Shown in pieces: positions 4,360 to 50,859 of a DNA stretch of 64,000 bases. The position numbers were made by a program, and so were the translations under genes. The notes beneath the pieces were generated by a model that worked only from the letters and a program-made list of their open reading frames with translations, ran no database searches and was not told the DNA's origin. The stretch covers positions 8,866,001 through 8,930,000 of the forward strand of contig CM114271.1 in assembly GCA_050084515.1 (NCBI GenBank). Reading direction: 5' to 3'. Every line of letters starts with the position of its first letter. Position 1 is the first letter of the stretch. Source of the DNA: Blasia pusilla (taxonomy: Eukaryota).

Positions 4360-5137
4360 TATGTGGTAAGAGCTACGATGTGGTTGAGGAGAGTTACATG
4401 GTTGGGGTCAAGATGTACCCTCTACACCAACGAGTTGACGATGGAGAGTTAGTGTGCTGATGTTGCCAAGTGGTCTGCATCTGGTGATGGGAGGATCGAC
4501 TTGTTGTGAGAGGAGGTGGTTGTGATGCGGAAGTTTCCGAGCCACATGGAGGAGTGAGTGTTGATGGAGCAGATGATTGGCGGGAGTGATCAGGTTACCC
4601 ATCCGAGTCCCTTTTCTTGCACTTATCTTCTGTGATTGAGAGTGTTGGGTATCGGGTAGTAGCTGGTGCCAGGTGGGTGCAGTGATGGTGACGAGTGGAG
4701 ACTCTTTTCATGTGTAGCATGTTGGTGGATATACGACGGTTTTCGAGTAGGGGTCGCATGTATGACCCGAGAGCGTGTCGATAGGTTAGGTGAGTTAGTG
4801 GGAGGCTCATGGTGAGCCTGAGTGTTGAGTGTGCGTGAGGTTGGGTGTGTCATCACAGGATTGACGTTAGCATAGGTGAACTAGTGAGGAGTGTGGGAGA
4901 CTCTCGGTGAGTCTGAGTGCTTGAGTGGGTGAGACAGTGTTGTCATCACGGCGTTCTTCCAGGGTTCGGAAGAATGGGGTAGTGCGAGTAGTAGCAGTGG
5001 TGTGACACGGAGTGGACTGAGATACCGAGGGGTTACGAGTGAAGAGCTACCTCGACATCCATCTGTGGCTAGATCGTCATCACTAGACATTGGGTCTGGT
5101 GACGAGATCGCAGACGGAGGCAATATCACTTGGTAGG

Positions 5138-6090
5138 AGATGGACGACATGGGCCATCAGGGCATGCGTCGTTTCTCGGGTGCACTAGGCACCATTGACT
5201 TAGATGATTTTATCCAGGAGTTTGACACCTAGTGCGAATTCCAGAAGATACGGACCCCAACACGGTTCAACCTTTTCATGGCATGGAAGGGGTTGTTCCA
5301 GCACTTGGAGGGTCCTCCGATGGATGACTACATGGAGTTTTAATCACTATATTCAGTAGAGATTGATGCCTCGAGGATGTATTGGGCTCTAGGGTATGTG
5401 TCCACTAGTGGTCGTGAGGCATATGATGGGATCGTGAGAGGGGAGAGACCCACACCATCAGCCCGGAGACTAGATGGAGAGGAGGGCAGTGAGACACACA
5501 ATGTGGCTCAGACCTCTAGTGGTAGAGGGCCACCCCACTTCAGTCCCATAGTGGAGTTCTTCCCACAGTTGGGGAAGAGCTACTAGGGCGTACGCACCGG
5601 CAAGTTGAAGAGTCTACAGGATTTTTAGGGATGATCGGGTGAGAGTTTGAGAGAGGCATTCACATGCATGAGGAGGTTGATCATTCCTACGTATGGAGTG
5701 ACTAAGGCGCAGTCAGTCCAATATTGGTACGGGGTTCTAGACCGAGAACTACAAAGGAGAGTCTGAGATGCGATGTTGATTCACATAGCAAAGCCCACAT
5801 TGAAGGTGGTCTTTGAGTTTTCTGAGCGTATTGAGCTCAACATGAGTGAGGAGCTCGTAGTGACCGCTGGATTTTCTCGAGAGTCAGCGAGTCCACGAGC
5901 GACGGTGATCCCACAGGTGCCACAGCGAGCACCAATACCATGGGAGCGGGCCAGTGGGCCCAGAGAACACGTCGGATACCGTGAGCCTATGAGGCAACGA
6001 CCCGTACCTACATATGTTGCCCAATAGGGACCGATGTTATCTTGTTGGACGTGTGGAGGGGCCCATAGGCAGAGAGACTGCACACACCAT
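5138..6090 (+). pseudogene. Gypsy gag remnant (copy 1)
   Basis: GMRRFSGALGTIDLDDFIQEF...AWKGLFQHLEGPPMDDY plus a Cys/His knuckle. Homologous to the minus-strand gag at 50860-51879. Confidence 0.75.
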
Positions 6091-7841
6091 GGGAGAGGAC
6101 CACGAGCGCCTCCAATTCCTCAGGAGCCACATAGGATGGCCCGACCATAGTAGCAGTGTGACTACTTCCACAGATATGGTCATACTAGGGATAGATGTTT
6201 TGACCTTCGTCGAGAGGCACGTCCAGAGGTAGGTCGAGGGTCTGGGGGCGGTCGTCTTGGAGGAGGTTGGGGAGTTCTTCATGGATGTAGTGATAGAGGA
6301 CCACCACCAGCCAGAGGAGATGGAGCAGGAGCACCAGAGTCGGCACTTCTCTCTCGCATCGATCAGTTGGAGCAGAGGATTGCCACCATGACAATCATGC
6401 AGCTCAGGGAAGGCACGGAGCCACGAGCAACTAGTGTGGCTCCAACTTCTACCTCTTACCCTGACTCGGGTGAGGATCTCGCTAGTATGGGGTTTATGTG
6501 TAGTGCAGCTCAGGTTGAGGCGCTTGTAGTGGTGACTCAGGGTGTTGCAAGAGGCATCGAGCCATCGAGAGGTGGAGTTAAGATTGACCCACTGGAGGGG
6601 ACCGATGGGCGCCAGGCCACGGTTCCACAGTCATTCACATTGTCGGAGGCACTACACACACCATTGATGGTGCCTCGACGACCAGAAGTTCCTACAGCTA
6701 AGGCAGGTATGTTGACTTCACGAGGAGTTGGAGTGACAACTCCTATGCCGGCTCGAGTGGAATTAGTGTCGACCATAGTGTTGGAGGTGGCCACAAGAGT
6801 GAGTTAGACTCTACTATTCTCTGCCATAGAGTTGGCGACATTGGGAGTTGGACCTGTTGAGGTGTTCCGGTTGGACGCCACGTTGTGTGAGCGTGGAGAG
6901 GTGACTGCTCCTTGTTCAGAGGTAGTTGAGGAGGTGGTGGACTTGCCCTCATAGGCGGTGCTCGAGACGTCCCCCACACAGTCATGGCATGCGGCGGGGA
7001 AAACTTGGTAGATATGCCAGCTCGACCTGCCATAGAGTGAGCAGTGGTGACACCTAGAGTAGTGTTACTGGATAACCAAGCTGGAGTATTTCACTTGGTT
7101 AGTCCGACGGGGATAGTATACCACCTGCAGCGCGTCCTACTTGATTCAGAAAGGGCAGCCCTTGATGTAAGGGAAGGCGGAGTGTTTAGCACTGGGGTTA
7201 CGGAAGGCCGACATTGAGACTTGTCCCTTCGAGATACATACCTCGATTGGGGGCGTGTCATCCACGCAACATGAGATAGTTGTCAGAGTCTAGCCAAAGC
7301 ATACGACGGATAGTGCTATGGTGCGCACACGTGCGATTACGATACCAACTGAGTCGTACGATGTGTTGGTGGGCGTACAGTATTATATCCCCTAGGATTC
7401 ATCCCTCACTTCTGGGAGGAGACCGTTGCTTATCGGCCAGAATGGCGGTCAGGTGACGGGTGGATGAGTCAGTTATCCGTGTAGTTTGCGGGACAAGGTG
7501 GTCGATCACGAGACGAGTCTGTGACCACGTTGGCAGCTTTCACAGGTAGTGTTAGCTGGCCAGAAGAGTTGTTGGAGGGGAACGCACATACGGAGGATGT
7601 CCCAATAGCGCATAGTCCCACAGAGAGACAAGCCATGGTGGGTGTCTCTTCCCATGTTGGCGAGACCTCTTCACCATTGTGGGGTACGACTCGAGAGCTA
7701 CAGAGGAGTGCCAAAGACCTCGTGAGGCAGGCGTAGAGTCATGCCTTCATCACGGAGCAGCGAGAGTCAGGTGACGATCAGGCTTGTGGAGTGGAGACGT
7801 TGACCCCACTGGATACCACACCCGTTTTTGGCTAGTGTCCA

Positions 7842-8808
7842 GAGGAGGGTGTTAGGGTGTTAGATCTCTTCGGAGGAATTAGCACCGGATTGGCTGCAGT
7901 ATGGCACGCGGACATACGGGTGCATCAGTACCTTTATGTGGAGAGAGATGAGATCGCGCGGTGAGTATCATTACGTCACGTATCGAGATTGGTCTAGAGA
8001 TATCCTGAGTTGTTTCCGGTATCTACAGTACGGGGATATCAACATACACCACCCGCCAACATCTCTTTGGTGGAGGCGCAGAATCTGGATAGAGTTGGTA
8101 CCATTCATTTGGTGATTGCTAAATGGCCATGTCATGGTCATTCATCACCTGGCCGAGGATTTGGATTGCAGGATCCGAGGTCATGGATGTTTTGGGAGAT
8201 GCTGCGAGTAGTACGACACTTGCAAGAGAGTCAGACATGTTCTCCAACGTACATTTTGGAGAACGTGTCGTTGTTGGGAGACACTCGTGCACGTGTGATG
8301 ACAAGTGTGCATCAGGTGAGGTCCGAGTTGGGACGTGTTGTGTTGCTACATGTAGTGAGAGTTGGATCACGTGCCCATCGTCCACGACGTGGTGGACGAA
8401 CCTGATACCATCAGAGGTACTTAGTTGAGGATACGATGGAGTCCAGAGAGCACCACATCTCACAGTGGATGCTATTTTGGGCTCAGGGCGTCGATCTCAG
8501 GTGGTGACGCAGGATGATAGACCACTGTTGGCGATGACCAAAAGGGTGGGGGAGTTGAGGGCAGCCTTACCTACATTGGTGAGCTTCCCAGCATCCCATG
8601 CCTTTTGTCAAGGAGGACCATGCATGATTTGGGATGAGGTGACCCGAGCATTGGAGAAGCCTACACCAAATGAGCGCGAGCGCGCCATGGGGTTCGCTAC
8701 GGGTACAACGGCGGTGCCAGGTATGATTGAGGCATCCCGGAGACAGGTGTTGGGGCAGGCAATGGACCTCAACTGTCTCACATGGATAGTCAATCTAGGT
8801 ATGGCTTA
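7842..8808 (+). pseudogene. DNMT3-like C5 cytosine methyltransferase domain within Gypsy pol (copy 1)
   Basis: Motifs in canonical order: I VLDLFGGI, II YVERD, IV VIAKWPCHGHS, VI YILENV, VIII AHRPRR(W)WTN, IX ERERAMGF, X RRQVLGQAMD. Contains in-frame stops and frameshifts. Confidence 0.9.
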
Positions 8809-8915
8809 GCAGAGACGGATGCGAGTGTCGTCCATGTCGTCATGTCCACGAGTTGGACCATTTCCTATAGGGTTTGTAGAGGCATTGGCTCAAGTTGTAG
8901 AGGCATTGGCTCAAG

Positions 8916-10927
8916 TTGATAGGAGGAGAGCGACGTCAAGTTCATAGGTTTCTGAGAGGGCATGTCAGTTGTTTTGTCTTCAGTATCAGAGACTTGGGTA
9001 CGATGAAGGGTCTCGGGATACGGATTGAGTTGGCTAGTGATACGCCGATCTTTTGTCGACCTGATAGGTCTTGTGATATGGAGCGAGCCTTGATTTAGAG
9101 CAGGAGTCATGACTTGTGGAGTTATCACATGGGGAGTATGCATCTGCCACAGTCATGCCGACGAAGAAGGATATGTATGGCAATTGGACCGATAGGCGGA
9201 TGTATGGAGATTACCGTCCTATCAATCGACACACGAGTATCCATGCTTACTCCTGAGGAGATCTTTGATGCGGTAGGGCATGCAAAGATCTTCAGTACTT
9301 AAGATCTCCGTGTTGGCTATCATCAGTTTCCTATCTGGTTGGAGGACAGGGAGAAGACAACATTCTGGGGGATAGACTGGTTCGGGAGAGATTTCTTGTA
9401 TCAGTGGCGATTCTTACCATTTGGGTTGAAGAATGCGCATGCAGAGTTTCAAAGAGTGATGGATAGGATTTTGGTTGGCTTGGATTTTGTACGATGTTAC
9501 ATAGATGATATTCTTATCTTCACTTCCACGGTTGAGGAGCATGAGCGACACCTGGAGGAGGTGTTTCGGCGATTGCACTCACATGGACTAAAGTTACATC
9601 CAGGCAAGTGCAGATTCTTTCAGGAGCAAATTGAGTACTTGGGACACACCATATACCCGAGGAGGAGCGGTAAGAGGAGAGGAAGAGAGGAAGATATTGG
9701 CAACCCCTAGGGCTCTTATTTTTTTAAGAGAGTTTCCGACAGGTTGAAGAGAGTTTCCGACTGGTTGGAGAGAGGAAAGTTTTGACGAGTTGAAAAGGAA
9801 AAAAAAAATCCAAAAAAAATTGGTGGTGACATTTTTTGATTTTTTTTACCTTTTCAACCTGTCAGAATCCGACGGGTTGCAAATTTTTTTGGTTTTTTTT
9901 TTATGGTTAAGGAAAAATTTTCATTTTTGGGGGTTTTCTTAACGTTTGCAACCTTTCGGAGTCCAACGGGTTGCTTTTGAGGCCAAAAAGAAACTCATCG
10001 GAGTCCGACGGGTCGCCATGATGCCTAGAAAGCAACCCGTTAGAGTCCGACGGGTTGCAAATGTTAAAAAAATCCCAAAAAATGAAAATTTTCCTTAACC
10101 CAAAAAAAAAACCAAAAAATTGCAACCCATCGAATTCCAACAGGTTGCACTAAGTTTCCTCTCTTCAAAAAAAATCTCCAAAAAAATTACTCACTTATTA
10201 TCCATAATCTTCATATTTTTTGAAGAGAGTTTCAATTTTTTGTCCCTGTTGTGCCTTTTTTTTTAAGAGAGACTCTCCTCTCTTCCTCTCTTCCTCTCCT
10301 CTCTTCCTCTCTCTTGCCAAAATACCAGCCCCCTATACCCGAGTGGTTTAGGAGTTCAGCGAACGAAGGTGGAGGCTATTGCGCAAATTCCACGCCCTAC
10401 AGATGTGAGTCGAGTCGTAGCGTTTCTTAGACTGGCAAACCTCTATTGACGGTATGTCAAGGGTTTTAGTTCGATCGCAAGGTCTTTGACCTTTTTGATG
10501 AGACTGGATCAGGTTTGGTTGTGGGGAGACAATCAGGAGCGAGCATTTCAAGAGGTGAAGGACAGGTTGACGTCCTCAACCATTTTACAAAGACCGGTTA
10601 GGGGTCGTCCATTCCAGTTACATACGGATTGGAGCATGTTGGGTCTAGGAGCAATGCTTACTCAGAGGGATGACGAGGATAGGGAGTTTGTTATGACTTA
10701 CGTGAGCTGATTGAACAACATTGTAGAGGCAAAGTACAGCTCCTACGAGGGAGAGTGCTTGGCTACAGTGTGGGCGGTGGCACATTTCAGGTGCTATTTA
10801 TTCGGCAACCCTTTCATACTTATCACTCATCATCAGCCGTTTAGGTGGTTGATGGAGTCCAACAAGCTTACGGGAAAGCTTTCTAGGTGGGCTCTATTAC
10901 TACACGAGTATAAGTTTAAGGTGGTGC
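8916..10927 (+). pseudogene. Gypsy reverse transcriptase-RNase H remnant, interrupted by a MITE
   Basis: LPFGLKNA, YIDDILIF, KLHPGKC, IEYLGHTIYP|SGLGV, FQLHTDWS, YSSYEGECLA, KLSRWALLLHEY. Confidence 0.9.
9661..10333. mobile_element. Non-autonomous Mutator-like MITE (673 bp) of the palindrome-bearing family
   Basis: Perfect 9-bp TSD TATACCCGA (9652-9660 and 10334-10342); removing it restores RT GHTIYPSGLGV. Ends match 29323 (GAGGxGCGGTAAGAGG) and 41313 (AATACCAGCCCCC). Holds five 27-bp palindromes. Confidence 0.9.
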
Positions 10928-13443
10928 TATTTGTTATGCACCTTCAGACACGCAGAGTGTAGCCTTTATGCAGCCCAGTACTTCCACTCATTTTCTTGAG
11001 AATATCAATTCCACAATCCGTTTTCAGACCTCTCAATTGTTCAACAATACTACAACATACCATGGCCTGAGGCTACCTGAGTCACCTATCAAAAGGAAAT
11101 GTACCTAGCGTATTGCACATGATGTGTAAGCTCCTGCCCTTTGTCCAGCCGCATTGCTGTGATTGCACCCGTTCACTTGAGCACTTGTTGCTAGACTATT
11201 ATCCTGACTTTAGTACCGGCTTTCATGCGCAGATGATCATCGGCAATTTGAAGGATGATTCTTTTGATCCACTTCTGCGCCCGATTACTTAAGGTTGTTT
11301 AAGTCTACCACTAAGTAGACAGTTTGGTTCTACTCAGATGCTTTCATATTCTTGGTTGTACCAGCTGATAATTTCTGCAAGTCTATGCTATAAGCATTAG
11401 TTTATACAATTTTATCATGACACATATACTCTTATATAACTACTGGGTTTCTTCTGGAATTTTAATTTTTAAACTTATTACATTTTGCGTTGTGTTCTCT
11501 ATGCATTGGTGACTTATGCTATACATGGTTGTCTTCTTGACTCCTATGTTATTGTCAAATTTTCTGGTCACCTAATCGCTGTTTAACAAGCATTGATTGG
11601 CAGCATTTGTAGCTCATTTATCACACTTGGGTTTACCTCATTCTCACCAATACGTTCTTATTATCAAAGTTAGTTCTGTGTTGTTTCTTTTCCACACTTT
11701 TAGTTGCACAACCATTTGTTAGCGGTGATGTTATGTTACGTTTCATTGCAGAGAACATCAATGTCTAACTTTGTGAGTGAGGACACATACCCTGCTCTTG
11801 TTGCAATTGAATGTGACAAAGGTAGCAGAAAACGGAGAAGGCGGCATTCACCCGGCACAGAGGTGAAGCTCCCAAGTGTCAGTGATCCAATATACTTCAA
11901 TGACAATGTGCAGATGGTTGGGTTTGAAGTAGCACTAAAGAATACCAAAATTGCTTAGGATCGACTTGATGACTGTGGACGTGATAACGACATACTACGA
12001 CTGGTCATGCAATGAGTAACTGAGGACCACGACACCGACATGGAAACATTTTCCGATCGCAAACATGACCTACAAAGTATTCTTGCTGACTTGCTTGTTC
12101 TTGAACAGCACTGTGTACACAAATATGCAAATGACCTGGAGCTACACGGCCAGATTGCTAAAGATTCGCTGTGGGAAAAAATGGAAAGGCACTTTGCAAC
12201 AATATAGTTGATAGCGACTCTTAAAAAGTAGGTTCAAAAAATGAGCAATGTGATATGTTTGCTAATCCCAAAGTAGAGACTCCTTGGCTCACTGTTGACA
12301 GCAGTTCATTCTTTTTATTTTTCAGTTTCCTGTCGTTTTGGGTCTGCCATCCCTTGTATCTCTAGAGAACATCAGGGAAAACTTGTTGTTGTATTTGATA
12401 CCAGTGATATGAATTTTTGATACTTGTATTCACACATATTTGTCTAACAGCGTAATGTTTTTTCTTCACTATAAAGACTGCCTTATTGCACACTAAAACA
12501 CATCTGATTATAATCTGCGTTGCAAACTAAGTTAAATTCATATCTTGACACAACAACACTGATGCCAGTTTAATACTTTCAGTGCATCCTGATACTTGAT
12601 AACTAAATTTATTAAAATCACACATGCACTCTTCACATTTGGCCTCTTCACGTTTGGCCTCTTTTGCATATATTTCGAGGGTCATCCTTGTGAGTTCACC
12701 TAGTTTTAGTCTACAGTTGTACACATGTGCTTTACCTATCTAGACTTCTGGTGTTCCTTACTATTGTGTTACCATCGTATGTAGACAGCGTATCGGCCAA
12801 CTCGATAGGCTCAACCATTATGTTTCATGTACTACTAATTCGATGAAGGCCTGACAACAAAAGAATCCATCCCGTTTTTGTTCAATTGATATTGAGATTC
12901 CCCCACTGTATCATCGATTTGGAGCACTTGTGTTGCATATGTCCTGCTTTGCTAAAATCGACCAGATCAGTACCTTGTTTCGAGCATAACATCTATGATT
13001 TTACAATAGTCATTGATACCTACCGTGAAAGTTGTAGTCGTGTTTTAAACCAGGCGTACAACCTATTGAGTGCCCACTCATATCCTATATCCTTATTCTC
13101 CCAAGTGCATCATTTTGTATGATCACAAATTTATTTCTGATTGACCACTTTAATAAAACTTCACAAACACACATATTCATGTACAAGTGACCAACAAATA
13201 CTCCTAAATAGTTACTTGATCTCCACATGCACAACAGAGTCTTGCTATAAGTTTACACAACAGGTGGACCCTCAAACTCATCCACCTTTACAACAAAGAA
13301 ACTATAGACCACAATCATTCGCGCAGTTTTATATTTTTACCTGACCACCTCGTTTACCACTATTTCTATTTACGAGACTACCGTTTCACTACACAAATCT
13401 TCACTACACTGCGAGGGGCGGCAAACTTGTTTTTCAAACATAA

Positions 13444-16400
13444 CTAGTAAGGTGCCCATGCGATACACGGGTACAAAGATGTCAATAAGAATAATTTTAT
13501 TGATTAGAGTATTTCTTTATACATCACGTTACGCGTGAAGTGTCCTTTTTCATTTGAAAGCGCATTACTTCTTATTGTGATATTTATTGCACTTTTTAGT
13601 CCTATTCTTGACAATGCTACATACAATTGACCATGAGAAAAGACAGATGTAGTCAAATAAATTCCTTTTTTCTTCAAGGTTTACCCTTCAGACTTATTGA
13701 TAGTCATGGCAAAAGCAGGACGAATAGGAAATTGAAATCTACGTAATCAAAAGGTAAACCTGAGTCTGATGCAATCAATGGGATGCGTGGAATAAAGACT
13801 CGATCACTAGTGTTTTTTCCTGTGATGATTTCCGTATCAATGACATGTTCCATGAATCCACGAATCACCACACGAGTTCCATTGGCTTGTCCCTTTGAAC
13901 CGTTCAAATTTGGTAAAAGCATGATAGGTGCACCAACTTTCAAGTTTAAAGGATGTGGTGGTAAACTTGACGGTAAGCAAGTATTTAAGAATTCGGTTGG
14001 ATAGATCTATTTCATTCTTTCATCCATAATGGAATCAACACTAAGGTGAGTATATTCATGCAAAGAGCAAAGATATGGTAATTAGGAAAATGAGATTAGT
14101 TTTCATGAATAATATCATTAAAGAATGTTTGAGGAGAATGATATGAATATAACCTCTCCATAGAATCGAGAAATGACTTCTGTATTGATGTCGTCAACAT
14201 CTCGATTTTTTGTTGTAAGAATTGTTGTATCTCTTAAAAAATTGATGTCACGAAACTTTTCATAATCATTTCCGTAGATAATGTCAATAAGGTCATTTAA
14301 TTTTCTTACTCTTGGTCACCATATCATTTGGCAATTGTATAAAATCCCCTCTCCTAAGTGAGATTGCAAAGGCACACGACCCTTTGTAACCTCCAACAAC
14401 CAATCTGCAGAAGCTTGTTGTTGTACACACATGTTCACTTCCAATTTTTGAACCCTCATATTTGTTGTAAGCTTCATTACCTTCACATGAGACCATAAAG
14501 TTGATCTCTTTAATGTAGCTTGAATAATTTTTGGACGATCTCCACGAAGAAAAACTGGCAAGACTTGGCAAAAATCCCCACCAAAGACTATTAATTAGCC
14601 ACAAGACCAAACATTCCTCAAGTTTTTGGAAACCACTTCCATGATATCTTGAAAGGACCGATTTACAGCCTCAAACGCATGGCGATGAGTCATAGGTGCC
14701 TCATCCCATATGATAATCCAAACCCTTTGAATTAAGCGCGCAACTACGCTATTAACAGGTAAACTACAAAAAACGTATTCAAAGATGTAAATACTTTTGG
14801 CAACATATCTCTTTACCACGCTAAAAGAATTACAAATTCATTAAGTGGTAGATCACTTACTTGCAAGTAGAATTTTCATCTATGTTGATGGGAATCTTAC
14901 ACAATGGACCTATCCTCAACCTCATCCGACACCGTGGGACAAAGTTACACTCAAGACAGTCCGTTGGCTCCTACGCCCTATCCATGATAGATCTCGACCT
15001 ATCGGCTACTCAGATGTGACAGAATCCAAGATCCAGAACCTAGGGTGTTTCACACAAATGAAAATCTTGAAGATATGGGCTCCGAGGAAGGAATACAATC
15101 ATTAGTCGAGCTTGTATCTCCTTCTTCCTCCTCATCTTGGGATAAATCAACGTTAATACTTTCATTAATATGTTCTACTATAGGTGTGGATAGAACTCTA
15201 GATACACTCTCATCTAACACTTGCCTAACATCCTCAATCGGTATAATCATGTACTTATTGTCCACCTCCTCATAAAAAATGGGTCTTGGGACATAGCTAT
15301 CACTCGAAACTTGTAAGACTTTAATTATCCCAATTTTTTCCAGCATACGCTCAAGTGCTTCTTCCACGAGAGGCACGTAAGACTCACCATCACTACCTTG
15401 CCTCATCATTTATAAAATAAATGATGAGGCAAGTTAGTGATTCGATCGCTCCAACACTTCTCCGTCACAACCTCTAGTCACTACCTCGTTGCTTGAGCAA
15501 AAGTCACAACACAAAGAGCAACAATCTATGCTGAAATTGATAAGCTAGTACCACTACTTACGATGATAGACCACCAAGAAGACGAGCTATGGACCCATAG
15601 CCTGATACGGATCCAACTCACCATAATTCAGGTGAATTTTGGTGAGCTGAATCTCAATTCCAACTCTGCAGGTTACACTACGAGAATCTCAGATTATCTC
15701 TGGCATTAGTGCAAGCATAGTTCAGAGGAGCTGAAAGTGTACCTCTATTGCTAGATCTCTAGATATGTGTCTTACGATTCCCACCTGGTTAGAATGTCTA
15801 GCCAAAGTTGTGATTCTTTGTAGACGTTTGATGTTCTACCTATTTGTTTTCTGTCTATCATCGAAATGGAACCAGCTTCAGCCTCGTTCCATTCGTTCGG
15901 ACGAGTCAAACAAGCAACACTCTGTTAGTCTAATGTTGACACAAAACTGGCTATAAAAAATACAGAGTTAAAATCTAAGATAGAATGTGTCTTACTCATG
16001 AATTTGAAGCAATCATCCTTTTCGGCACGAATCCATAGCATCAAATACAAAATTTGCTAATGAACTCGTGCGTTCCTATTGCCATGGTTAGGCTCTTGTG
16101 GTATGGGCTTTCCTTTGGACATCGACTGTCCGTGATGCTCATCAATGCGTTCACAAGGTTGAAAATGTAAGGATAAGGATAAGGAGAAGCATCGGCTAAT
16201 TGCGGTTATCGATCATCGGGGTGGAAGCTTTTTCCTGCCACATTATAAAATTTCGAAGCTGCTCCACTACAACTTTTCATTTGCTTCGCTCGATGTGAAC
16301 ATGGCTTTTCGGATCGGAATACAAATCTCACCTTCGGATCGGAACAGGGCTTTCAGATCTCACCTTCGAATCAGAACACAAACCTCACCTTCAAATCGGA

Positions 16401-17565: not shown

Positions 17566-19482
17566 ATGGCGGACGCAGCTTCACTCGATGATATGCTGCT
17601 GGAGGCTGCGGGCAGGTCGAAGGGTGGGCACAGTGATGGGAAGGGAGGTTCTTCGAGTCGACCACCTGCCAAACGTAGGGGTGGTCCTATCAATGATAGC
17701 AGTTCAGAAGATCGGAGTGAGTCTAAATCGGACAACGATTTCTACGACGATGATGATTATGAGAGAGGGGGTTCGAGTCGGAAGGTCGAAGGGTCGAAAA
17801 TGCCTCTCAAGAAGAGGTTTGATTCTGCAGACAAGGATGGTGAAGAAGGGGATAGAGATGGATACGAAAGTGACATTTCGTTTGGCAGTGATTTGTACAA
17901 AGATGACGAAGATAGAGCTCGTCTTGCTTCGATGACGGAACTCGAGCGGGAAATGATTTTGCACGATCGTGGAGAGGCTAGGGATAATTTCAAGATGAGA
18001 AAAGATGCTGGTGCGCGACACAGCCAGGTGCAAAGTAAAACTGCAAAGCCAAGAGAGAGAGATGTTGGCCCCCCCTCCTCTAGAATTCGTTCTTCCCTTA
18101 GAGAATCAAGAGAGATTCCGCGGACTTCCAAGGAGAACGCTTTGCATGAGCTTGTGCAGAGGAGAAATAGGGCGCAAGAACCCGAGAGGAAAAACCGTGA
18201 TTCATCAGCGTCTGCCTCTAGGGAAAGAGACAGACGATCTTCTTTACGGAAGTCGCGCAATAGGAGCTACAGTGATTCGGAGTCTGACAGTGAAGATGAC
18301 GACGAGAGTAGCAGAGAAGGAGACGATCGCAGCGAAGGACCTGGGTCTGATGATGATGATATGCGTAAAGGTGAACCAGACGCTGAAGTGAACGACATCA
18401 AGAGCATCACCATTCGGCGGTCGAAGCTTCACAAGTGGTTCATGGAACCTTTCTTCGAAGAAGTTATAGTAGGATGTTTTGTGCGAATTGGAATTGGTGT
18501 GTCAAGCTCCGGTCAAAGTATCTATCGAGTTTGTCTTGTGAAGAATGTGGATGCCAGAGACCCCGAAAAGCAGTACAAGTTCGAGAATCGAATGACTTAC
18601 AAGTACTTGAATTGTGTATGGGGGGACGAGGGTTCGGCTGCGCGTTGGCAAATGGTAAGAGCGTCTGATCAGGGTCCCACAGAGAAGGAAGTCCTTGACT
18701 TGAACAGGGAAATAGAGAGATGTGGTGGCAGGAAACTTACCAAAGCGGAAGTGCAAGAGAAGAAGGAAGCAATCGCGAAATGCAGCTCTTTCGTTTACTC
18801 CGCAGCAACTGTGAGGCAGATGCTGAAGGAGAAGCAATTGGCAGCTTCACGTCCGTCTAACTATGCGCTGGAGAAAGATCGCATAACGAAAGAGTTAGCT
18901 GGGGCCGAAAATAGAGGGGACCATGGCGAGGTAGAGAGACTCGAAGCCAGGCTCAAAGAATTGGAGGAGTTTTCATTGCAGGTAAAGAGTAAGGATGCTA
19001 AGGCTTTGGCCTTAGCAGAGATGAATCGGCGCAACAAATTTGAGAACTTCAAGAATGCTTCTGACTTGAAGCCTGTAAATGTTGATGCCAAGGCTGGAGA
19101 AGCAGGCTATGATCCATTTTCCCGCCGATGGACCAGGTCCCAAAATTATTACAAGTCGGATGGTCCCAAAGTTGAAGTAGAAGCTGATGAGCCCGAGGCA
19201 GTAGAAGGCGTAAAACCCGTTGTTAATACCTCCAAGCAAGTTGCAAGAGTGGCCCCAGTTGATGGAAAGACGAAACTCTTTGCCCTGCATGACTTCGATG
19301 TAAATATATCGCTGACACCCATTCAGCAAATGGGGAAAAGTCAAGGAGCTCAACTCGCATACATGGCTCGGAAACAAAAACTGGAAGCTAGCTGTGGAGC
19401 CCAGGTGGATAGCAGTGACGGTCGACGACACACATTAACGCTCACAGTTAATGACTACAAGCGGAGGAGAGGCCTGCTTTGA
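17566..19482 (+). CDS. RTF1: PAF1 complex subunit RTF1 homolog (VIP5), Plus3 domain, 638 aa, intronless CDS
   Basis: N-terminal LDDMLLEAAGR, DLYKDDEDRARLASMTELEREMIL, Plus3 domain (ITIRRSKLHKWFMEPFFEEVIVGCFVRIGIG), DPFSRRWTRSQNYY and C-terminal LTVNDYKRRRGLL. First ATG is at 17566. Confidence 0.95.
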   Translation: MADAASLDDMLLEAAGRSKGGHSDGKGGSSSRPPAKRRGGPINDSSSEDRSESKSDNDFYDDDDYERGGSSRKVEGSKMPLKKRFDSADKDGEEGDRDGYESDISFGSDLYKDDEDRARLASMTELEREMILHDRGEARDNFKMRKDAGARHSQVQSKTAKPRERDVGPPSSRIRSSLRESREIPRTSKENALHELVQRRNRAQEPERKNRDSSASASRERDRRSSLRKSRNRSYSDSESDSEDDDESSREGDDRSEGPGSDDDDMRKGEPDAEVNDIKSITIRRSKLHKWFMEPFFEEVIVGCFVRIGIGVSSSGQSIYRVCLVKNVDARDPEKQYKFENRMTYKYLNCVWGDEGSAARWQMVRASDQGPTEKEVLDLNREIERCGGRKLTKAEVQEKKEAIAKCSSFVYSAATVRQMLKEKQLAASRPSNYALEKDRITKELAGAENRGDHGEVERLEARLKELEEFSLQVKSKDAKALALAEMNRRNKFENFKNASDLKPVNVDAKAGEAGYDPFSRRWTRSQNYYKSDGPKVEVEADEPEAVEGVKPVVNTSKQVARVAPVDGKTKLFALHDFDVNISLTPIQQMGKSQGAQLAYMARKQKLEASCGAQVDSSDGRRHTLTLTVNDYKRRRGLL

Positions 19483-26600: not shown

Positions 26601-28249
26601 GAAAGTTAGCATGTTTTCTATCACATATTTTAGGAAAGATCGACAAGATTGGTAGATCTTCTTCAAGCATAGTGGAGGACAGCCTCTAGAGGTCGAGGAT
26701 GACCTATTGAGGCCATGGGTAGCCTGAGAGAGCATGTTTCCTATTTATTTCGGCTCATTTGGATCCATATAGAGAAATTTACTATTTTAGGTAAGTTAAT
26801 CTTATGAGTATAGTTGACTTTCCACTTTGGTAAGTGGCCTTGACCTCCTACAGCAAGTCAAGAGCCAAGGAGGTGACCGTGAGAGAGAGAGAGAGATCCT
26901 TGATTTATTGGAGATATTTTGACACTTGATCGTCTCAATGTTTGGATGCCATGAGTTTGCATGGGATCATGTATGTATTTGGTGACAACAATGCATGTTG
27001 TGTAGTGACGTGTATATGCACAATATCCTCCATAGGCATATCCATCATCCTCATGGACAAACCCAACTCCTCGTCTCCCTACAGACCACCTCACGCACGA
27101 TTCTTAGGCCCAGTGAGACTTCCAACTCGCTTTGGTGCCTCTTTGGCCCGTGGTTTGGACATAGCTCATAGTATAGGCTAAAGCATCTAGTAAACGTATG
27201 ATTTTTGACAATGGTCAGACTAGAACATTCCATTTATGGGCCCATCTACTCCTCCAAGATACGGCATGCGTCCATTATCTTGACGGGTGCAATCCTATTG
27301 TTGATCCTCTAGGTGTTGAATTTATATCTTATAGCCAACCACACCAACTGGAGATTCCAATAGCCTAGGTGATCTCTCAACAACGAAGTAGGAAAGCTTG
27401 ATCTTGGATAGTTTTTTAAGCACAATTATCTTAACTAGGTTTAGTTAACCACAATTAATATAACTCGAGACTATGGTTAGGATTAGGATTAGGTTCGCTT
27501 GTACATACCTTATAGAATTGAGAAGGAGACCAACCTCCACTCATTATCTCATTGCAAAATTTCATTCTCCATGATGATGGTGGTGGTGGTATGTGTGTGT
27601 GTTTTTGTGAGAACCAAATCCCATCAATTGTGCTTGTTTAGCAGTTTTCTACATTGTATTAGAGCATCAATAGGAGAACATCAATTGAAATTCTTAATGT
27701 TTGAAGAGAAAAGAGAGATGAGAAAAGGCAAAATTTGAGTTTGGTAAAATTTCAGTCAAAGCTCAATGGTAGAGTTGTGATAGTGAGAAAAATTTTGAGG
27801 CATTTTTTACAACTTTCACGATCGATTCAACAATCTAGATCTGCATCAGTCAGAATGACGGCAAAAGCAGGTTTTAAACTTCCTATGGAGCGCGTCAAGG
27901 TCTTTCTAACACATCAAAAATCATTCGATTGTGATATTCTTAGCTCTTGCAATAATAGTTTCAAGATAGGAAAGTGTATTTAGTGAAGGAAATTTTTATA
28001 GTTTACTCTCTACAGGCCAATTTTGATTAGTTCTTCCATAAAGTTCGACAATTCTGAAAAATTTCATATCAATTTCTGTATAGGAGTCGTCTATGCTTCA
28101 ATTGGAGCAATGGAGAGTTTAAAATTATGATTAGTGAGTAAAATGGTTATTGATGGAGTATTCCTCAACAACAATCATAAGCGAGAAGATAAGAAGATTT
28201 GTAATTTTGAAAGTTTTGCATGCTATAATTTCTCATGGGTTGAAAACTA

Positions 28250-29322
28250 TGGGAGCTTGTTACAAGTGAGATTGTATGAGGATGAGTGCTTGGCTGTAGT
28301 GTGGATTATTGCATATTTCAAGAGTTGATTATTCCAAAATCCTTTTACCATCAGCACTGATCATCAACCACTTAAATGATTGATGGAAATGGATAACTTA
28401 CAAGGAAGCTTGTGAGGTGGTGAGTATGATTTCCAAGTGGTACATTGACCTAGGACCCTCAACCCAGATGCAGATGAGTTGAGTCGTAACCCATGTCCGA
28501 GTTAGCTAGATGCAACTTGAGCTCGTTGGCGTTGAGATAGTGATGAGGAGTTGGAGCCTGGATGGCACATGTCAACCTATTTGGGCTTGTTGGCTATGGA
28601 GAGCCAGAGTGTTGACGGGCCTTTGATGGTGAGGTCTAAAGGAGAGTCCTTAGATCGAAAGGTTGGTGAGGAGGTGACAAATAGCTAAGATATTCACGAG
28701 CATGGAGTAATCTTGAAGTACCTGTGTATTGGCAGCGTCATAGATCTTTGAGCCACATGGTTTTTGTGGAAGAGAACGTATGTATTGTGAGTTTGCGAGG
28801 ATGGTAGAGTATGTGTACTGCCTCATCCTTCACATAGAGCACGTTTGGTGTAGCACGCCCATGAGAAGTTGGTTCACTTTGGAGTGAAGCGGATGTCCAA
28901 CTTGCTCTAGATACAGTTTTGGTGGCAAGGCATGCAGACTGATGTGTAAGAGTTTGTTGCTAGGTGCATGGTGTGTAATGTGGGCATCTTTCAATGCTCC
29001 GACTCCACAGTTGTATCCATTTCCGATCATGGGTTTAGGTTATAGGTGGAGTTTGGATTTTCCATGACCTTTATCTTTGACGGAGTGCCACGATTGCTCT
29101 ATTTTGGTGATGGTCAAGAAGTTCTCGAAGTGGATAGAGTTGGTTGCATTGCCTCACAAAGCAAGTGAGGGAGTAGTATATGTCTTCCTAGATCGATTGT
29201 TGAGTCATTATGGTGCACCAGCTGAGGTGCTAATAGACCAGGGTACAGAGTTTCACGATGAGTTTCATGCCTTTTGTGATAAAGCGTTGATTCATCACCA
29301 CACAACGTCGCAAGATCATCTT
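28250..29322 (+). pseudogene. Gypsy RNase H-integrase remnant, probably from the DNMT-Gypsy family
   Basis: YEDECLAVVW, HHCC finger (HEKLVHFG...CMVC), WSLDF, FSKWIELVAL, VLIDQGTEF. Cut off by the TIR at 29323. Confidence 0.85.
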
Positions 29323-29565
29323 GAGGTGCGGTAAGAGGAGAGGAAGAGAGGAAGAGAGGAAGAGAGGAGAGAGGAGAGAGGAAAATACCTTCAACCAAAA
29401 TAGATACTTTTTTTTAAGAGAGTTTCCGTTGGGTTGAAGAGAAGAAACTTTTTGTGTGAATTTTTTTGCACTTTTTTGTTCATTTATTAAGTAGTCCCAC
29501 AATTTTTTTTTCCTCTTCCATATTTTGGCAACCCCTCTAAGTCCGACGAGTTGCAAATTGCACAA
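29323..29565 (+). repeat. Left TIR
   Basis: Near-exact reverse complement of ~40362-40596. Confidence 0.9.
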
Positions 29566-35707: not shown

Positions 35708-36038
35708 CTATATCCACGATGAATTGCTTGATCAGTCGCCTTGCTGATGTCGAGATGAGTCGCCTTGATGGGTAGCTCGAATCGTCTTGCGATCGTTCCG
35801 TCGAACCGTCTCGCTCTCGTTCGCTCGTATCGTCTCGCGATGACTCGCCGTATGAAGCGCCCCTTGGTATCTGATTAGGTGCTGCGCAGGAGAGCAATGG
35901 AGATCGCAAAATGAGAAACCAGAATTGAGTGATTTCTCCCCTATTTATACTTTTCTAGCCGTTGGGCTGACTATTGGGTTGCGTCATCCTTCCGACGGCG
36001 ACGTGCCGGCCGTTACGGAAGTCTGGACGTGAAAAATG

Positions 36039-36725
36039 GCAACCCGTCGGAGTCCGACAGGTTGCGCGCCTCCGCCGTCCTGGGATGATAACGCGAGGTG
36101 CGCGAGCAACCCGTCGGAGACCGACACGTTGAGCGCCTCCGCCGTCTTCGGACAAGAACGCGAGGTATCCGCGCAACCCTTCGAAGACCAATAGGTTGCG
36201 CGCCTCCGCCGTCTTCGAACAAGAACAGGAAGTACCGGCGCAACCCGTTGGAGACCGTTGGGTTGCACGCTTCCCTCGTCAAGGGTTAACAACGCCGGCT
36301 TCCCGCGCAACTCGTCGGAGGCCGACGAATTGCACGCTTCTTTTATGTAAGCGAAACAAGGCGAGGCCCTTGCGCAACCCGTCGGAGGGCGACGGGTTAC
36401 ACACCTCGCCGTCTTTGGGCAAGAAGGTGCGGCACCCGCGGAACTCGTCGGGAACAGACAGTTTGCACGCTTCCTTCATGTAAGTGTTACACCGTGAGAT
36501 AATTGGGCAACCCGTCTCATGCCGACGGGTTGCAAGCCTCCGCCATCTTCGGGCAAGAAGGAGCGGTATCCGAGCAACTCGTCGGAGAGCGACGGGTTGC
36601 CAGCTTCGATCATGTTTGCGTTTCAAGGTAAGGCAGAAGCGTGCAACCCGTCCAAAGCCGACGGGTTGCAGGCCTTGCTTAGCTTGGGTTAATAGTTGAG
36701 TTACCAGGACTCCGACGGGTTCCAA
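36039..36725. repeat. Intergenic tandem array, 67-bp period, each unit containing the 27-bp palindrome
   Basis: Palindromes start at 36039, 36106, 36173, 36240, 36307, 36374, ~36440, 36507, 36574 and 36643. Confidence 0.9.
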
Positions 36726-37139
36726 CAAAATGAAGTGTGCTTCGCAACCCACGTCTCTGCTTCCCACATCTTGTAACAGATTGCAACAGATTGAATAGGT
36801 TGCAACATAATTGAATCCATTGTGTCAGAAAATTTCACCTACTGAACTTCATCTTGTCAGTAAAATTCTGTCAGGAGTATCTGATTTCTTATTCACTATA
36901 AATTAAAAATTCTCATTCTGATTCTGATTCTCATTCTGATTCTCATTCTCACTCTCCTTCCGTACGAAATTTCCGGGAATGGATAATTATGTGAAGCTCA
37001 CTTGTGGCAGTCATCTGGTGGCCCTTCCTCAATCAAAAATCGTTCGACCGCAAGCTCTTGAGTCTTTGATAGCAGTGGATGAAAAATTTCTCTCTCTTCG
37101 ATTTCTTCTCCAAATTGGAACCATCTTTGTATCCAAGGA

Positions 37140-40100
37140 TGTTAGGATGGACGGTACGGAGGACATAATAGGTGAGACAGTCCAGCCAGTGATTGCAGAT
37201 CGTAAAGTATGGAATCTCCTACCTCTAGCAAATGGTCAATACAGAGTTTATGGCCTGCCCCCTGAATTCGTCTGTTTCCCAAGTAGACGGTCGAGAATTT
37301 CCTAGTGCTCCGAGCTCTACGTTTGCAACTCCTAGCTCAGTAGATCCGGCTTCGACTCCAACTTCACACGCTCATAACAATGTTGTTCTTCCGGAAGAGA
37401 TTCCGGATGTTATCAACCTCAGTGGATCTGTCGGACACCAACCGGGCCCTCTGTCCGCCTACTCGTTCCTCTTGCGAGTATCAGGCAATAGTTTGCTTTT
37501 GTCTCTGGCCTTGAAAATGTTCAAGCACATTCTTGTCGACAAGCTACCACCCACGTATGATGGTAATTGCATTTTTGAGTTGCCTCCACTTGCTGCTCCT
37601 GCTCAAAAGAAAGATGGAGGACGCCTCAAGGGTATGGACAGAAAGTCTGATTGTCATCGATGGTGCAGGCTTCAACGGACTAATGCTTCAATTCCAAATG
37701 GTCCTTGGATTGTCTCCCGCCGCCAATGTGTTGGAGCCTTGGAGTGTAGAAGTCCAGCATGCCTGTATCTAGAGCGCAACGTGCGAGTCAATACGTCGCA
37801 ATTCCCCCCCCAAGAATGCAGAAACTCCATACGAGGTCGATGTCACCATACCGCCAGGAGGCCATCGATGTCCTCATTGTGAGGCATCGCCCTTCAGCGT
37901 TGGAGCGTGTCCTTCATACATATTTTTCATTTCCACGACTTGGGCTCCACGTCGGAGTACACAAGGCTGGCAGTTCATGTTGGCTCCCACACCCATCCTG
38001 TGACCGATGCAATTCAGAGACACATCAAGGAGGATGTGGCGAAGAAAGTTGTCGAGGTCTACAGAAACTCTCCGGGTTCAAAGCCCAGAGTGATCAAGCT
38101 CACAACGGCATCACAAATTTGTGAAAAATTTCTTGGAATCCCTGGACAGGGCCAGATCACGACGGCCGAGGAGAAAAAACTCTAGGAAAATCTCGCCTTT
38201 CTCGCTGATCCTGAATGCTTCCGGAATTTGCTGCGTCAAATACGGGTTCTGGATGGAAAGATGGCCGAAATGGATGCCATCGCCAGAATCAAGGCCAACT
38301 CCAGATTTCCATTCATTCAGAGATGGCAGTTCATGGGCCAAGGAGGCGAGGGATCCAGGGCCTATGTCTTCAAAATTTCAACCACAGGTCCGTCGAGTGG
38401 CCTCGATCTTATAGATCGGATGAGGGAAGGGGAAGATCTTTACAGCAATTGGGTAAGCTTTGATATTTGCTATAGAGTGCTGATCGGATGGTTCACAATG
38501 GGTGCTCACGTTTATGACTATGTGGAGAAGGGACTCAAAACTATATTTGTCTGTGAAGTGAAGGCAGAAGACGTTGGCAATTTGAAGATGTGTTGGTTGC
38601 TCTTATTGGAGGTGGTGAAGGAAAACAAAAGGCCACCTCCGGAAATTTATGGGTTCATGGCGGAAAATGCACAACTTGGGTGGATTGCTATCCGGGAAGT
38701 GTTCTGGGGTGGAGAGGTTCAACCGGAGAGGGAAAGGTCGGATGCTTTCCATTGGCAAGAGTCTGTGACCCGGTACACCAAATCTTGCATCAAGGAGAAT
38801 AAGAGGACAGAGCATGTCACTCTACTCCAACGCTGCAAGGACAACAAAACTTTGAAGCAGGCCATGGAATGCCAGGAAGAACTTCATGGGTGGTGGAGGA
38901 AGCATGCAATTGAGGGGAAGTACAAAGACTTGTACTCTTGGTTGAGTTGGTGGACTGTACATATGAGACAATGGGGAAACTTCATGCGGCAGGTGAGTTC
39001 ACTATTTTGTCTTGTCAAGCTCACCTTGAGAATTTTTTGTAAAATTGCAGCTCAAGTTGAGAAGCATGGGAACTATAGGGATTTCAAACCAAAGAAACCA
39101 AGGAAGTTGTCGGATGCGAAGGGTTGCCCGAGTGTGCAACCCGCCGGAAACCGACGGGTTGCATCCAGAATTTTGGTGCAACCCGTAGACAAGTATGCAA
39201 GTCGCATGTATACAAGACCTGCAAATAGTTCGACCCGGATGGGTTTTGGATGACTTGCACTTGGATCTTCCAGAGTGACCACAAGTTCTTGCAACCCGTC
39301 TGAATCCGACGGGTTGCAGTAGGTGGGTTTAGGGTTGCAACACGTCGGTACCCGACGGGTCGCAGAGTCATTCTTGGGATTTCTCGGCCTTGCAACCCGT
39401 CTGGTTCCGACGCGTTGCAGTAGGTGGTTTTAGGTTGCAACACGTCGGGACCCAAAGGGTCGTAGGGTCGTTCATGGGATGCCTCGGCCTTGCAACCCGT
39501 CTAGTTCGGACAGGTAGCTTATTTCTTTGACTCCTGAGTTATTTTCGTTCCCTTCTAACATTACCGTCGTTGCACGGATTGAACATTCATGAAAATGCCC
39601 TCTGCCCCAACACAAGTGGAGCCGAAAGTGTTCATCCCTCCTGGAGGTTGTCACAAGCATGCCAACGAATTTCACTTGTGGAGGCATGCCAACAAGACCA
39701 GGCAAGAGCAATGCTCTGATCAAAGATCCCATATCTTCCTCAAAAAAGGCATAACAAAAGGAAGGGGGCCATCGATCTACGAGCTCTATGTCAGGGCGGA
39801 TGTGAGATCTAGAAATGGGGTGAAGAGAAACAGAATGTGTAGGCCAACGGTGGAGAGAGCAAAGCGAATTGCATCAGCTCAGGAGGCAAAAATAGAGATC
39901 ATCGCCACGAAAGATGTCATGAGTGGCAATGGAATAGGAAGGATGTATTGGGTCAGGAACAACACTGTAAATTCAAGTGTCACAGGGGTGTATGTGGTGC
40001 ACATCTGTTGCTTTCCCACATGTTCATGTGATGACTTTGTCCAAAGAGAGACAAGTGGCAAAAGGTATTTCCCTTGTAAGCACATGTACTATATGTTGCT

Positions 40101-40194
40101 GGTAGTTTTAAGAGAGTCGGAGGTAGGAGTAGGAATCCACCAACCAATTCTGTCCCTCAAAGAAGTGCGAAGTATTTTATACAAACCACTTTGA
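37140..40194 (+). pseudogene. MULE transposase: GCM/WRKY-like zinc finger, DDE core and SWIM finger; frameshifted
   Basis: CVGALEC...CPHC...GSHTHP; WVSFD (38462), GFMAE (38663, E in place of the second D), DAFHW. After an intron starting at ~38993 come PNTSGAESVH (E at 39624) and SWIM CSCDDF...CKH. Confidence 0.85.
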
Positions 40195-43533: not shown

Positions 43534-44726
43534 ATGTACCAAAGAGGTAGACAAAGATAGAATGTTTGTCGGGACAGATCACATTTGAGTGAGGGGGTAT
43601 GCGGCTCACATTTGAGCGATGCCCGAAAATGTCGTCTTTTGCCTGTCCTCCAATTTGATAGGCAATTGATGGTATCTAGCTCAAAGATCTTACAAACTGA
43701 AGACCTTTGCATGCCCAATAGCATCAAAGATCTCCTAAGGGGTGGGCATGGTATACCTATGGGGCTTCGCCTTCCGATTGATAGGTCGATAATCTCCACA
43801 CATCCGCCTATCTGTCTAGTTGCCATGCACATCCTTCTTGGCGGGCATGATAATCACAGATGCATACTCTCCATGGAACATCTCCACTAGTCCTGCTCCA
43901 ACCAATTCTTGGCTCCTACTCTAAATCACATCCCACTCCATGTCACTGTACTTATAGGATCGTCGGAAGATTGGCGTGTTGCTAGACAACTCAATGCGGA
44001 TCCCTAGACCTTTCAACATACCCAAATCATGCATACTAAATGCAAAACAGTATCCGATGCCGCTCTCCTCCTATCAACTTAGGGCCCATATCTGGCTCCC
44101 AAGTCTCCATTGTGACTACGGTAGGGCTCTCCGGCGCGGGTATCGATGATTGCTATGGTGTAACCCCGTCTCGGACAACATGACTCGACTTCTCTGTGCG
44201 CCCCTTCATAAGTGGCTCCCATGTGTGTTAGATACTTTTGGGACTCTAGTTAGGTGAGTAGAAGGAGCTAGAACAACAATCTGCAATTTAAATGGGATCA
44301 TTGGTGCTATTTGGACCAAGATGGTGGCAGCTCACAAATCAGATTGGGATAGGAAATTAGCTTCAGTTGTCCATGCTTACAATACATCTGAGAAGAGTAC
44401 CACAGGGAAAAGTCCCTACTTCTTGGTGTATGGGCAGAACCCTCTCTCGGTAGTAGAGTTGGAGTTGAAGACTGATCATACTCTAGAAGGGCACTTCCAA
44501 CCTGAAGGTGGCATAGATAGCAGGCTGGATATGATTGATGCCCTAGAGGAGGAGAGAAAGGCAGCATTAGAGAAGACCAAGGCCGTTCAGCAACAAAGGA
44601 AGATGAGGTTTGATAACCAAATACAGCATGATCCAGTGAAGGAGGGGGACATGGTGCTGATGTATGATAGTCGACCCCAAAAGTTTCCAGGAAAGCTGCA
44701 CATTCGACTGCTTGGGCCTTATCAGG

Positions 44727-50835: not shown

Positions 50836-50859
50836 CCCCATCTCCTCCTCTATGTTGAG

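Follow-up and report, generated by a model that had tools for sequence, protein, structure and literature searches.

A DNMT3-like cytosine methyltransferase domain in the remains of a liverwort Ty3/Gypsy-type element

Results

A methyltransferase domain lies between protease and reverse transcriptase

We examined a 64,000-nucleotide stretch of the Blasia pusilla genome (contig CM114271.1, positions 8,866,001 to 8,930,000 of the forward strand; hereafter the window), in which an original prediction made from the letters alone had placed a C5 cytosine methyltransferase (DNMT) domain at positions 7842-8808. The domain belongs to the remnant of a Ty3/Gypsy-type element on the plus strand (copy 1, ~4978-10959), where it stands between gag and protease on one side and reverse transcriptase (RT) and RNase H on the other. 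A second and more broken copy, also bearing a DNMT domain, occupies ~51942-43621 on the minus strand (copy 2). The features of both copies are collected in Table 1.

In its first reading frame (7842-8405, stops as X), the copy 1 domain reads EEGVRVLDLFGGISTGL...WPCHGHS...YILENV...GSRAHRPR, and the same reading holds VLDLFGGISTGL. This frame is interrupted by a TGA at 7962-7964 and a TAG at 7995-7997, and a single frameshift near 8387-8390 leads into a second frame (8390-8806), which carries a stop at 8426-8428 followed by ...PNERERAMGF...RRQVLGQAMDLNCLTW. In total, three internal in-frame stops and one frameshift separate the pieces, and no open reading frame (ORF) in 7842-8808 is able to give an enzyme. 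The order of the motifs is canonical (DLFGGISTGL, WPCHG, ILENV, RAHRPR, ERERAMGF, LGQAMD), and we take these to be motifs I, IV, VI, VIII, IX and X. When DNMT3A was aligned to the family of related proteins described below, its counterparts were LFDGIATG, GGSPCNDLS, LFENV, AHRARYFWGNL, EMERVFGF and LLGRSWSV.

A Pfam scan of the window was run on 136 stop-free ORF pieces. Within the domain, PF00145 matched 7998-8402 with 27.0 bits and an E of 3.9e-6, above the curated cut-off of 22, and RVT_1 followed downstream. The original prediction had read DNMT motifs in order between protease and RT on the pol strand, and both this arrangement and its coordinates proved right. The read-through of the N-terminal part (P0001, 188 residues) scored 26 bits against PF00145, compared with 35-58 bits for relatives. 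The C-terminal piece alone (8429-8806) had no Pfam match and is 61% identical to the family (alignments A1 and A2). A Marchantia polyprotein searched against the window with tblastn matched 7014-8890 with an E of 1e-142, placing the similarity far beyond chance. Together, these results confirm that 7842-8808 encodes a C5 cytosine methyltransferase domain.

Gag, protease, reverse transcriptase and RNase H surround the domain in copy 1

The gag and protease parts of copy 1 were placed by homology alone, neither having a Pfam match at E<0.01. With the family proteins P0379 and P0021, tblastn covered gag from 4978 or 5140 to 7374 at 40% identity, with 19 in-frame stops within the aligned segment. 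The first CCHC knuckle (CWTCGGAHRQRDC) is intact and the second (CDYFHRYGHTRDRC) lacks one Cys. The protease active site, LLDSGAQP in the family, reads LLDSE. Marchantia and Sphagnum polyproteins aligned across the protease and the first part of the DNMT domain at 7014-8387 and across the remainder of the domain at 8390-8890.

Downstream of the domain, the tblastn match to the family's tail ends at query residue 151 of 200 and RT begins at 8904, so that the junction is shortened. RVT_1 matched 9303-9707 on the plus strand (90.9 bits), and RNase H was recognized at 10450-10959 by both RT_RNaseH_2 (59.3 bits) and RT_RNaseH (67.3 bits). What survives of the Pol order in copy 1 is protease, DNMT, RT and RNase H, with no integrase. 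A non-coding insertion of 672 nt, bordered by a 10-nt direct duplication, TATACCCGAG, at 9652-9661 and 10334-10343, interrupts the RT, and a self-inverted stretch (9855-10147) lies inside the insertion. The insertion looks like a miniature inverted-repeat transposable element (MITE). As a separate observation, GTTGCAACCCGTCGGA-type words resembling the insertion recur near 33700, 36000-36800 and 39300-39500.

A divergent second copy has the same order

Single ORF pieces of copy 2 had no Pfam match, and this copy too was placed by homology alone. Its gag remnant is spread over several frames, its protease active site reads LLDLGA*P, and its DNMT domain, which keeps GWPCQG and IMENV, is broken by at least one frameshift and by many stops, 15 of them when it is read in one frame. 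The DNA of its RT fragment is 72% similar to the RT of copy 1, and this fragment lies ~2.3 kb from the DNMT domain, with other sequence in between. Collinear tblastn matches with the Marchantia and Sphagnum polyproteins thus recovered the order gag, protease, DNMT and RT in both divergent window copies.

Two further features lie in the gap between the DNMT and RT parts of copy 2. An ORF on the opposite strand (44258-44767, plus) resembles the C-terminal part of an integrase and has no Pfam match, and after it comes a tandem array of 32-38-nt repeats (44721-45017).

Table 1. Parts of the two DNMT-bearing element copies in the window and the evidence that placed them.
Feature	Positions	Strand	Evidence
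Copy 1 gag remnant with two CCHC knuckles	4978-6990	+	tblastn with family proteins
Copy 1 aspartic protease remnant	7017-7481	+	tblastn with protease region of P0379; 34% identity, stops
Copy 1 DNMT3-like C5 cytosine methyltransferase domain	7842-8808	+	PF00145, translation, alignments, tree
Copy 1 shortened DNMT-RT junction	8809-8906	+	~20 nt tandem duplication
Copy 1 reverse transcriptase, N-terminal and central part	8907-9661	+	tblastn with P0013, 8907-9701
MITE-like non-coding insertion (672 nt) splitting copy 1 RT	9662-10333	.	flanking 10-nt duplication
Copy 1 RT end and RNase H	10334-10959	+	Pfam; tblastn 10333-10926
Copy 2 gag remnant	48787-51942	-	tblastn with P0379; several frames, 36-42% identity, stops
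Copy 2 protease remnant	47959-48644	-	tblastn; active site
Copy 2 DNMT domain and tail	46465-47609	-	tblastn; 43-57% identity to family proteins
Copy 2 reverse transcriptase fragment	43621-44169	-	tblastn with P0013, P0031 and P0168

The domain is closest to DNMT3

Affinity to the known methyltransferases was assayed with a family profile and with relatives (P0005 and a Calypogeia protein) in place of the broken window copy. The profile, alignment A2, comprises 14 sequences with 33-45% identity to the first. Against the Protein Data Bank (PDB) it ranked DNMT3A (1.2e-20), DNMT3C (1e-19) and DNMT3B (7e-19) ahead of tobacco DRM (5e-11), HhaI (2.6e-10) and DNMT2 (6.5e-8), and DNMT1 was absent among its 57 PDB matches. 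The Calypogeia relative likewise matched DNMT3A (E 8e-11) better than DRM and bacterial enzymes. P0005 shares 66% identity with P0001, the N-terminal part of the copy 1 domain (alignment A1); its AlphaFold model had a mean pLDDT (predicted local distance difference test score) of 86.4, and the best Foldseek matches of this model in the PDB were all DNMT3A, DNMT3B or DNMT3C (E 1.8e-19; target template-modeling score 0.82-0.84). The motifs are unrearranged, and the catalytic motifs are all conserved across the family, with PC, ENV and RxR invariant or nearly so. Judged by profile and predicted fold, the domain is DNMT3-like, as the original prediction had it from the wording of the motifs. A bacterial-type methylase or contamination was also considered, and was rejected on the DNMT3 score in the PDB profile search, ten orders of magnitude above that of HhaI.

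Relatives in liverworts, mosses and green algae fall into two layouts

With P0001 as query, 31 of the 1762 candidates scored matched at the threshold of E<=1e-3, the best with 67-69% identity. Among them were a Calypogeia fissa protein, more than 12 Marchantia polymorpha models (900-1333 aa, mostly with PF00145) and Sphagnum proteins. More than 20 DNMT-bearing models from Marchantia, Calypogeia and Sphagnum, running gag-protease-DNMT and in part on through RT, RNase H and integrase, are already in public protein databases, where they are labelled 'hypothetical protein'. Among the Marchantia models, P0021 spans gag, protease and DNMT and enters RT, and P0013 spans protease, DNMT, RT and RNase H (RVT_1 and RNase H matches); Sphagnum P0031 has an integrase core (rve) after RT, at its end. 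Together with the window, these models show that elements of one kind occur in liverworts and mosses, and not in the alga Klebsormidium nitens alone.

A HMMER scan with P0005 returned 4268 clusters at E<=1e-3, 965 at <=1e-10 and 269 at <=1e-30; the best 150 clusters were mostly long polyproteins and all element-borne. The named algal matches were K. nitens KFL_013780020, the 'pol' of Scenedesmus sp. PABB004, Haematococcus lacustris and, weakly, Tetraselmis. Two layouts were found. In the first, the K. nitens protein has CCHC, protease and DNMT, and the more distant relatives P0168 and P0352 continue in one continuous ORF through RT and RNase H, with integrase last. In the second, seen in Scenedesmus and many other proteins, the order is RT, RNase H, DNMT, integrase and a PHD finger. 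Proteins P0206, P0319, P0161, P0320 and P0328, chlorophyte-type Gypsy polyproteins, carry this second layout. Over the 237 family proteins compared, RT preceded DNMT in 83, DNMT preceded RT in 21, and 133 were without RT.

A quick maximum-likelihood tree was built from 68 DNMT domains, with second-layout proteins subsampled one in three; branch support is given by the SH-aLRT (Shimodaira-Hasegawa-like approximate likelihood ratio test). The two layouts split across one branch (SH-aLRT 99.6), and both window copies fell within a clade of 13 rows that also holds Marchantia and Calypogeia (SH-aLRT 100). The Klebsormidium clade stood apart from this one in a tree that is unrooted, has no outgroup, is without host DNMT3 sequences and is weak at its deeper nodes.

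The tree also bears on the idea that the liverwort and moss elements came by horizontal transfer from algae and did not descend from a streptophyte ancestor. In this unrooted tree the bryophyte and Klebsormidium clades are not sisters, the nearest neighbours of the former are environmental sequences, and no vascular-plant member appeared among the named matches of searches limited by word sharing and length. Against such a transfer, liverworts of two classes (Marchantia and Calypogeia), the window liverwort and Sphagnum share one clade with an SH-aLRT of 100, and two lineages within a single genome differ at dS (synonymous substitutions per synonymous site) >1. Long residence fits both points, and we consider transfer from algae improbable.

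The host is a liverwort

An intact ORF near copy 1 (17566-19479) has a Plus-3 domain and encodes RTF1. Its product is 78% identical to that of Marchantia polymorpha, 75% and 74% to those of two Riccia species (75% for Riccia fluitans), 71% to those of Calypogeia fissa and M. paleacea, and 61% to that of Sphagnum. From these identities the host is a liverwort and hence a land plant, which agrees with the land-plant genome called by the original prediction. That such elements would thereby be extended to a land-plant lineage held good in that they occur in a liverwort; the extension is new only relative to the papers searched, given the bryophyte models already in databases.

A conserved stop lies between DNMT and RT in metagenome relatives

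From 160 matching stretches in metagenome contigs, 80 loci were retained. Both the DNMT tail and the start of RT could be placed in 47 of these, in the same frame in 38 and in different frames in 9. A single stop occupied one and the same codon in 37 of the 38 same-frame loci (...PKVFA*QPMASS...WEPLIG; for example L006 9320-9387, among loci L002-L077). Over all matches to the junction motif this codon was TAG 36 times, TAA 11 times and GAG once, and was followed by CAA CCC ATG. The long open models stop at the same place, both in Marchantia (1278 and 1248 aa) and on other contigs (1329 and 1331 aa). From the junction frames and the ends of these models, the nearest relatives have a first ORF of gag-protease-DNMT, with RT, RNase H and integrase behind one in-frame stop. 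In copy 1 the junction is without the site of this stop. The original prediction had put DNMT inside a Gypsy polyprotein; this is so in the continuous ORFs of P0168 and P0352, and in the nearest relatives the domain shares the frame of RT with one stop between them.

One in-frame stop ahead of pol is the arrangement by which retroviruses express pol through a leaky stop, and the conserved codon looks like such a gag/pol junction. Two points tell against this reading. The stop is known from one closely related set of copies, and because these loci are close kin it may reflect one master copy; in addition, the context TAG CAA CCC only partly fits the leaky-stop rule of plant viruses.

In four of the metagenome loci (L006, L040, L056 and L073) the coding part is flanked by direct repeats 307-344 nt long, at a distance of 8.5-8.75 kb from each other. 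These repeats help to decide whether the window domain could be a host DNMT3 gene or pseudogene that merely adjoins unrelated retrotransposon debris. Host DNMT3 genes do exist in bryophytes (PMC6453930, PMC8566409), and adjacency alone proves little where the window pieces lie in different frames and are full of stops. However, the order gag, protease, DNMT and RT occurs twice in the window in divergent copies; the same order is found in single ORFs or gene models from Marchantia, Sphagnum, Klebsormidium and other contigs; the repeats, which resemble long terminal repeats (LTRs), bracket the whole element in the four loci; and the DNMT domain has no intron-like interruption. The repeated collinear order, the single-ORF relatives and the bracketing repeats contradict a host pseudogene, which we rejected as next to impossible.

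The domain was under constraint before both copies decayed

Compared over DNMT codons, the two window copies gave a pS of 0.669, a pN of 0.284 and a dN/dS (ratio of nonsynonymous to synonymous rates) of ~0.21, and comparison with two moss-like loci gave ~0.10-0.12 with dS saturated; the dS behind these low ratios is at or near saturation throughout, which makes them rough and weakens the case they make. By these ratios, the protein still mattered during most of the divergence, in at least two lineages within this one liverwort genome, and we conclude that the DNMT domain was shown to be under selective constraint while the two window lineages diverged. Counting in the other direction, a stop-free DNMT domain was present in only 2 of the 80 metagenome loci, and these two loci are near-identical to each other with a dN/dS of 0.86, the value of neutral decay.

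The relatives are decayed as well: no metagenome locus of >=7 kb had a coding-strand ORF >449 aa. Both window copies are dead relics without present activity, and given their heavy decay nothing at them methylates now.

Other features of the window

The ratio of observed to expected CpG was 0.69 and 0.51 in the two copies and 0.65 in the whole window, so that depletion is not distinctive of the copies. The large exons of a HECT/UPL3-like gene (57700-59511 and 60956-62554, minus strand) had ratios of 0.27-0.29, compared with 0.88 for the RTF1 ORF.

Remains of further mobile elements were also present. A third Gypsy fragment (28137-29325, plus strand) holds RNase H and an integrase core with many stops and no adjoining DNMT part; because its protein coordinates overlap the RNase H of copy 1, it is a separate remnant. 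Broken pieces of a Pif1-type helicase (13707-14837, minus strand; PF05970 and PF21530) are of the sort found in Helitron-like elements. Two long ORFs, of 355 and 203 aa, lie at 38186-40194 on the plus strand, and a CxC...CxH SWIM-like pattern is present in the second; neither had a Pfam match at E<0.001, and they suggest a Mutator-like transposase remnant.

Discussion

What the window preserves

We consider it very probable that 7842-8808 is the DNMT domain of a decayed liverwort Ty3/Gypsy-type element, of the Gypsy-DNMT3 kind first described in the charophyte K. nitens. With the same high confidence, we reconstruct the ancestral coding layout as gag (with CCHC knuckles), aspartic protease, DNMT3-like methyltransferase, RT, RNase H and integrase.

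Several observations weigh against any activity of this locus. Copy 1 keeps PC and ENV but has H in place of the Q that is otherwise invariant in the family after PC. No integrase follows RNase H, where the element breaks off, and a direct-repeat (LTR) pair was sought around either window copy and none was found. At least 31 in-frame stops run through copy 1 from gag to the DNMT tail, and its RT is broken by the 672-nt insertion.

A proposed role in live elements

Cytosine methylation is the main means by which plants silence transposons, and a transposon with its own de novo methyltransferase therefore runs against expectation. For live elements, we propose that the enzyme was the C-terminal part of a Gag-protease-DNMT precursor and methylated the element's own complementary DNA (cDNA) or new copy de novo. 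We put this proposal forward tentatively, judging it nearly as apt to be right as wrong. A leaky stop behind Gag-protease-DNMT would give access to RT, RNase H and integrase. Placed ahead of that stop, the enzyme would be as abundant as Gag and would travel with the particle. It would then methylate the element's own cDNA or the freshly integrated copy de novo, and the new copy might pass as ordinary methylated host DNA, or the element's own activity might be damped.

Other roles would fit the same position. The enzyme may have acted on RNA or on host DNA in general, or the domain may have been only a DNA-binding or structural part of the Gag-protease precursor. The study that described retrotransposon-borne DNMT3 calls the role unclear, raises RNA methylation for another element class, and reports that one tested retrotransposon DNMT gave no DNA methylation in yeast (PMC5890265), and a DNMT ahead of the stop is grouped with Gag and protease, not with RT and integrase. 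All catalytic motifs of DNA C5 methyltransferases are nevertheless conserved across the family at 33-45% identity, and the closest folds are those of DNA-bound DNMT3A and DNMT3B. We regard such other roles as possible, and as less probable than methylation of the element's own DNA.

On a wider scale, Gypsy elements with a captured DNMT3 could form an old and large lineage of the green line, with hundreds of sequence clusters. In that picture a streptophyte layout (gag-protease-DNMT, leaky stop, RT-RNase H-integrase) would have passed into liverworts and mosses and the chlorophyte layout would be separate, while the enzyme, as abundant as Gag in the particle, would have made cDNA methylation a built-in replication step in early land plants. 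Taken as a whole, we hold this picture to be doubtful.

Comparison with known systems

The nearest described system is KnitGypsy-Dnmt3 of K. nitens, whose capture was ascribed to the K. nitens lineage, and for which that study reports a Ka/Ks < 0.2 over the domain (PMC5890265; Nat Commun 9:1341). The original prediction had cited this report of 2018 correctly. The main text of PMC5890265 does not mention Marchantia or liverworts, and later texts that cite it use the wording 'streptophytes' (PMC12344493; preprint 10.64898/2026.05.21.726589). Full-text literature searches returned no description of bryophyte retrotransposons with a DNMT, nor any paper in which six Marchantia gene ids of the family are named, and supplements (e.g. 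the trees of PMC5890265 and PMC12344493) may show some. In the literature searched, the alga K. nitens is the only case described in the plant line. The locus reported here is a fossil, yet it points to a land-plant branch of the DNMT-element family. The purpose of a transposon-borne DNMT becomes testable in a land plant, since Marchantia polymorpha is genetically tractable and has long open gag-protease-DNMT models (1248-1333 aa).

The liverwort elements share with KnitGypsy-Dnmt3 a Gypsy-type polyprotein, an unrearranged DNMT3-like domain and the order CCHC, protease, DNMT, and K. nitens KFL_013780020 matched the family profile with an E of 1e-98. Signs of purifying selection between lineages, here between the window copies, are a further likeness. 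Unlike KnitGypsy-Dnmt3, the element described here has a land plant, a liverwort, as host. The Klebsormidium domain is ~37% identical to that of the bryophyte clade and falls in a separate clade; ORFs of the Klebsormidium clade stop 4-6 residues past DNMT, whereas the bryophyte relatives have a tail of ~75-90 residues before the stop; and the K. nitens element is described as having DIRS-like repeats (PMC5890265), whereas the bryophyte-clade relatives have plain direct repeats.

The chlorophyte 'pol' proteins (Scenedesmus sp. PABB004 KAF8056149.1 and Haematococcus lacustris) are also Gypsy-type polyproteins with a DNMT of the same family (E down to 1e-129 against the family profile), but they carry it between RNase H and integrase and have a PHD finger after the integrase. 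Animal host DNMT3A, DNMT3B and DNMT3C and plant DNMT3/DRM provide the closest solved sequences and folds and have the same motif order. The family differs from the host DNMT3 enzymes in its low identity to them (20-24%), in the lack of PWWP, ADD or other reader domains and in its position inside a retrotransposon polyprotein, and DRM scores ten orders of magnitude worse against it than DNMT3A does.

The dinoflagellate SymbioDIRS-Dnmt3 and SymbioLINE-DNMT are likewise retrotransposons with a C5 methyltransferase, but they belong to other element classes (DIRS and LINE) that PMC5890265 treats as separate acquisitions, and we set them apart by that description. In the same source it is the DIRS enzyme of dinoflagellates, and not that of Klebsormidium, for which activity is demonstrated. 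This DNMT3 carries out de novo CG methylation, and cDNA methylation is put forward there as its role, which the authors call unclear.

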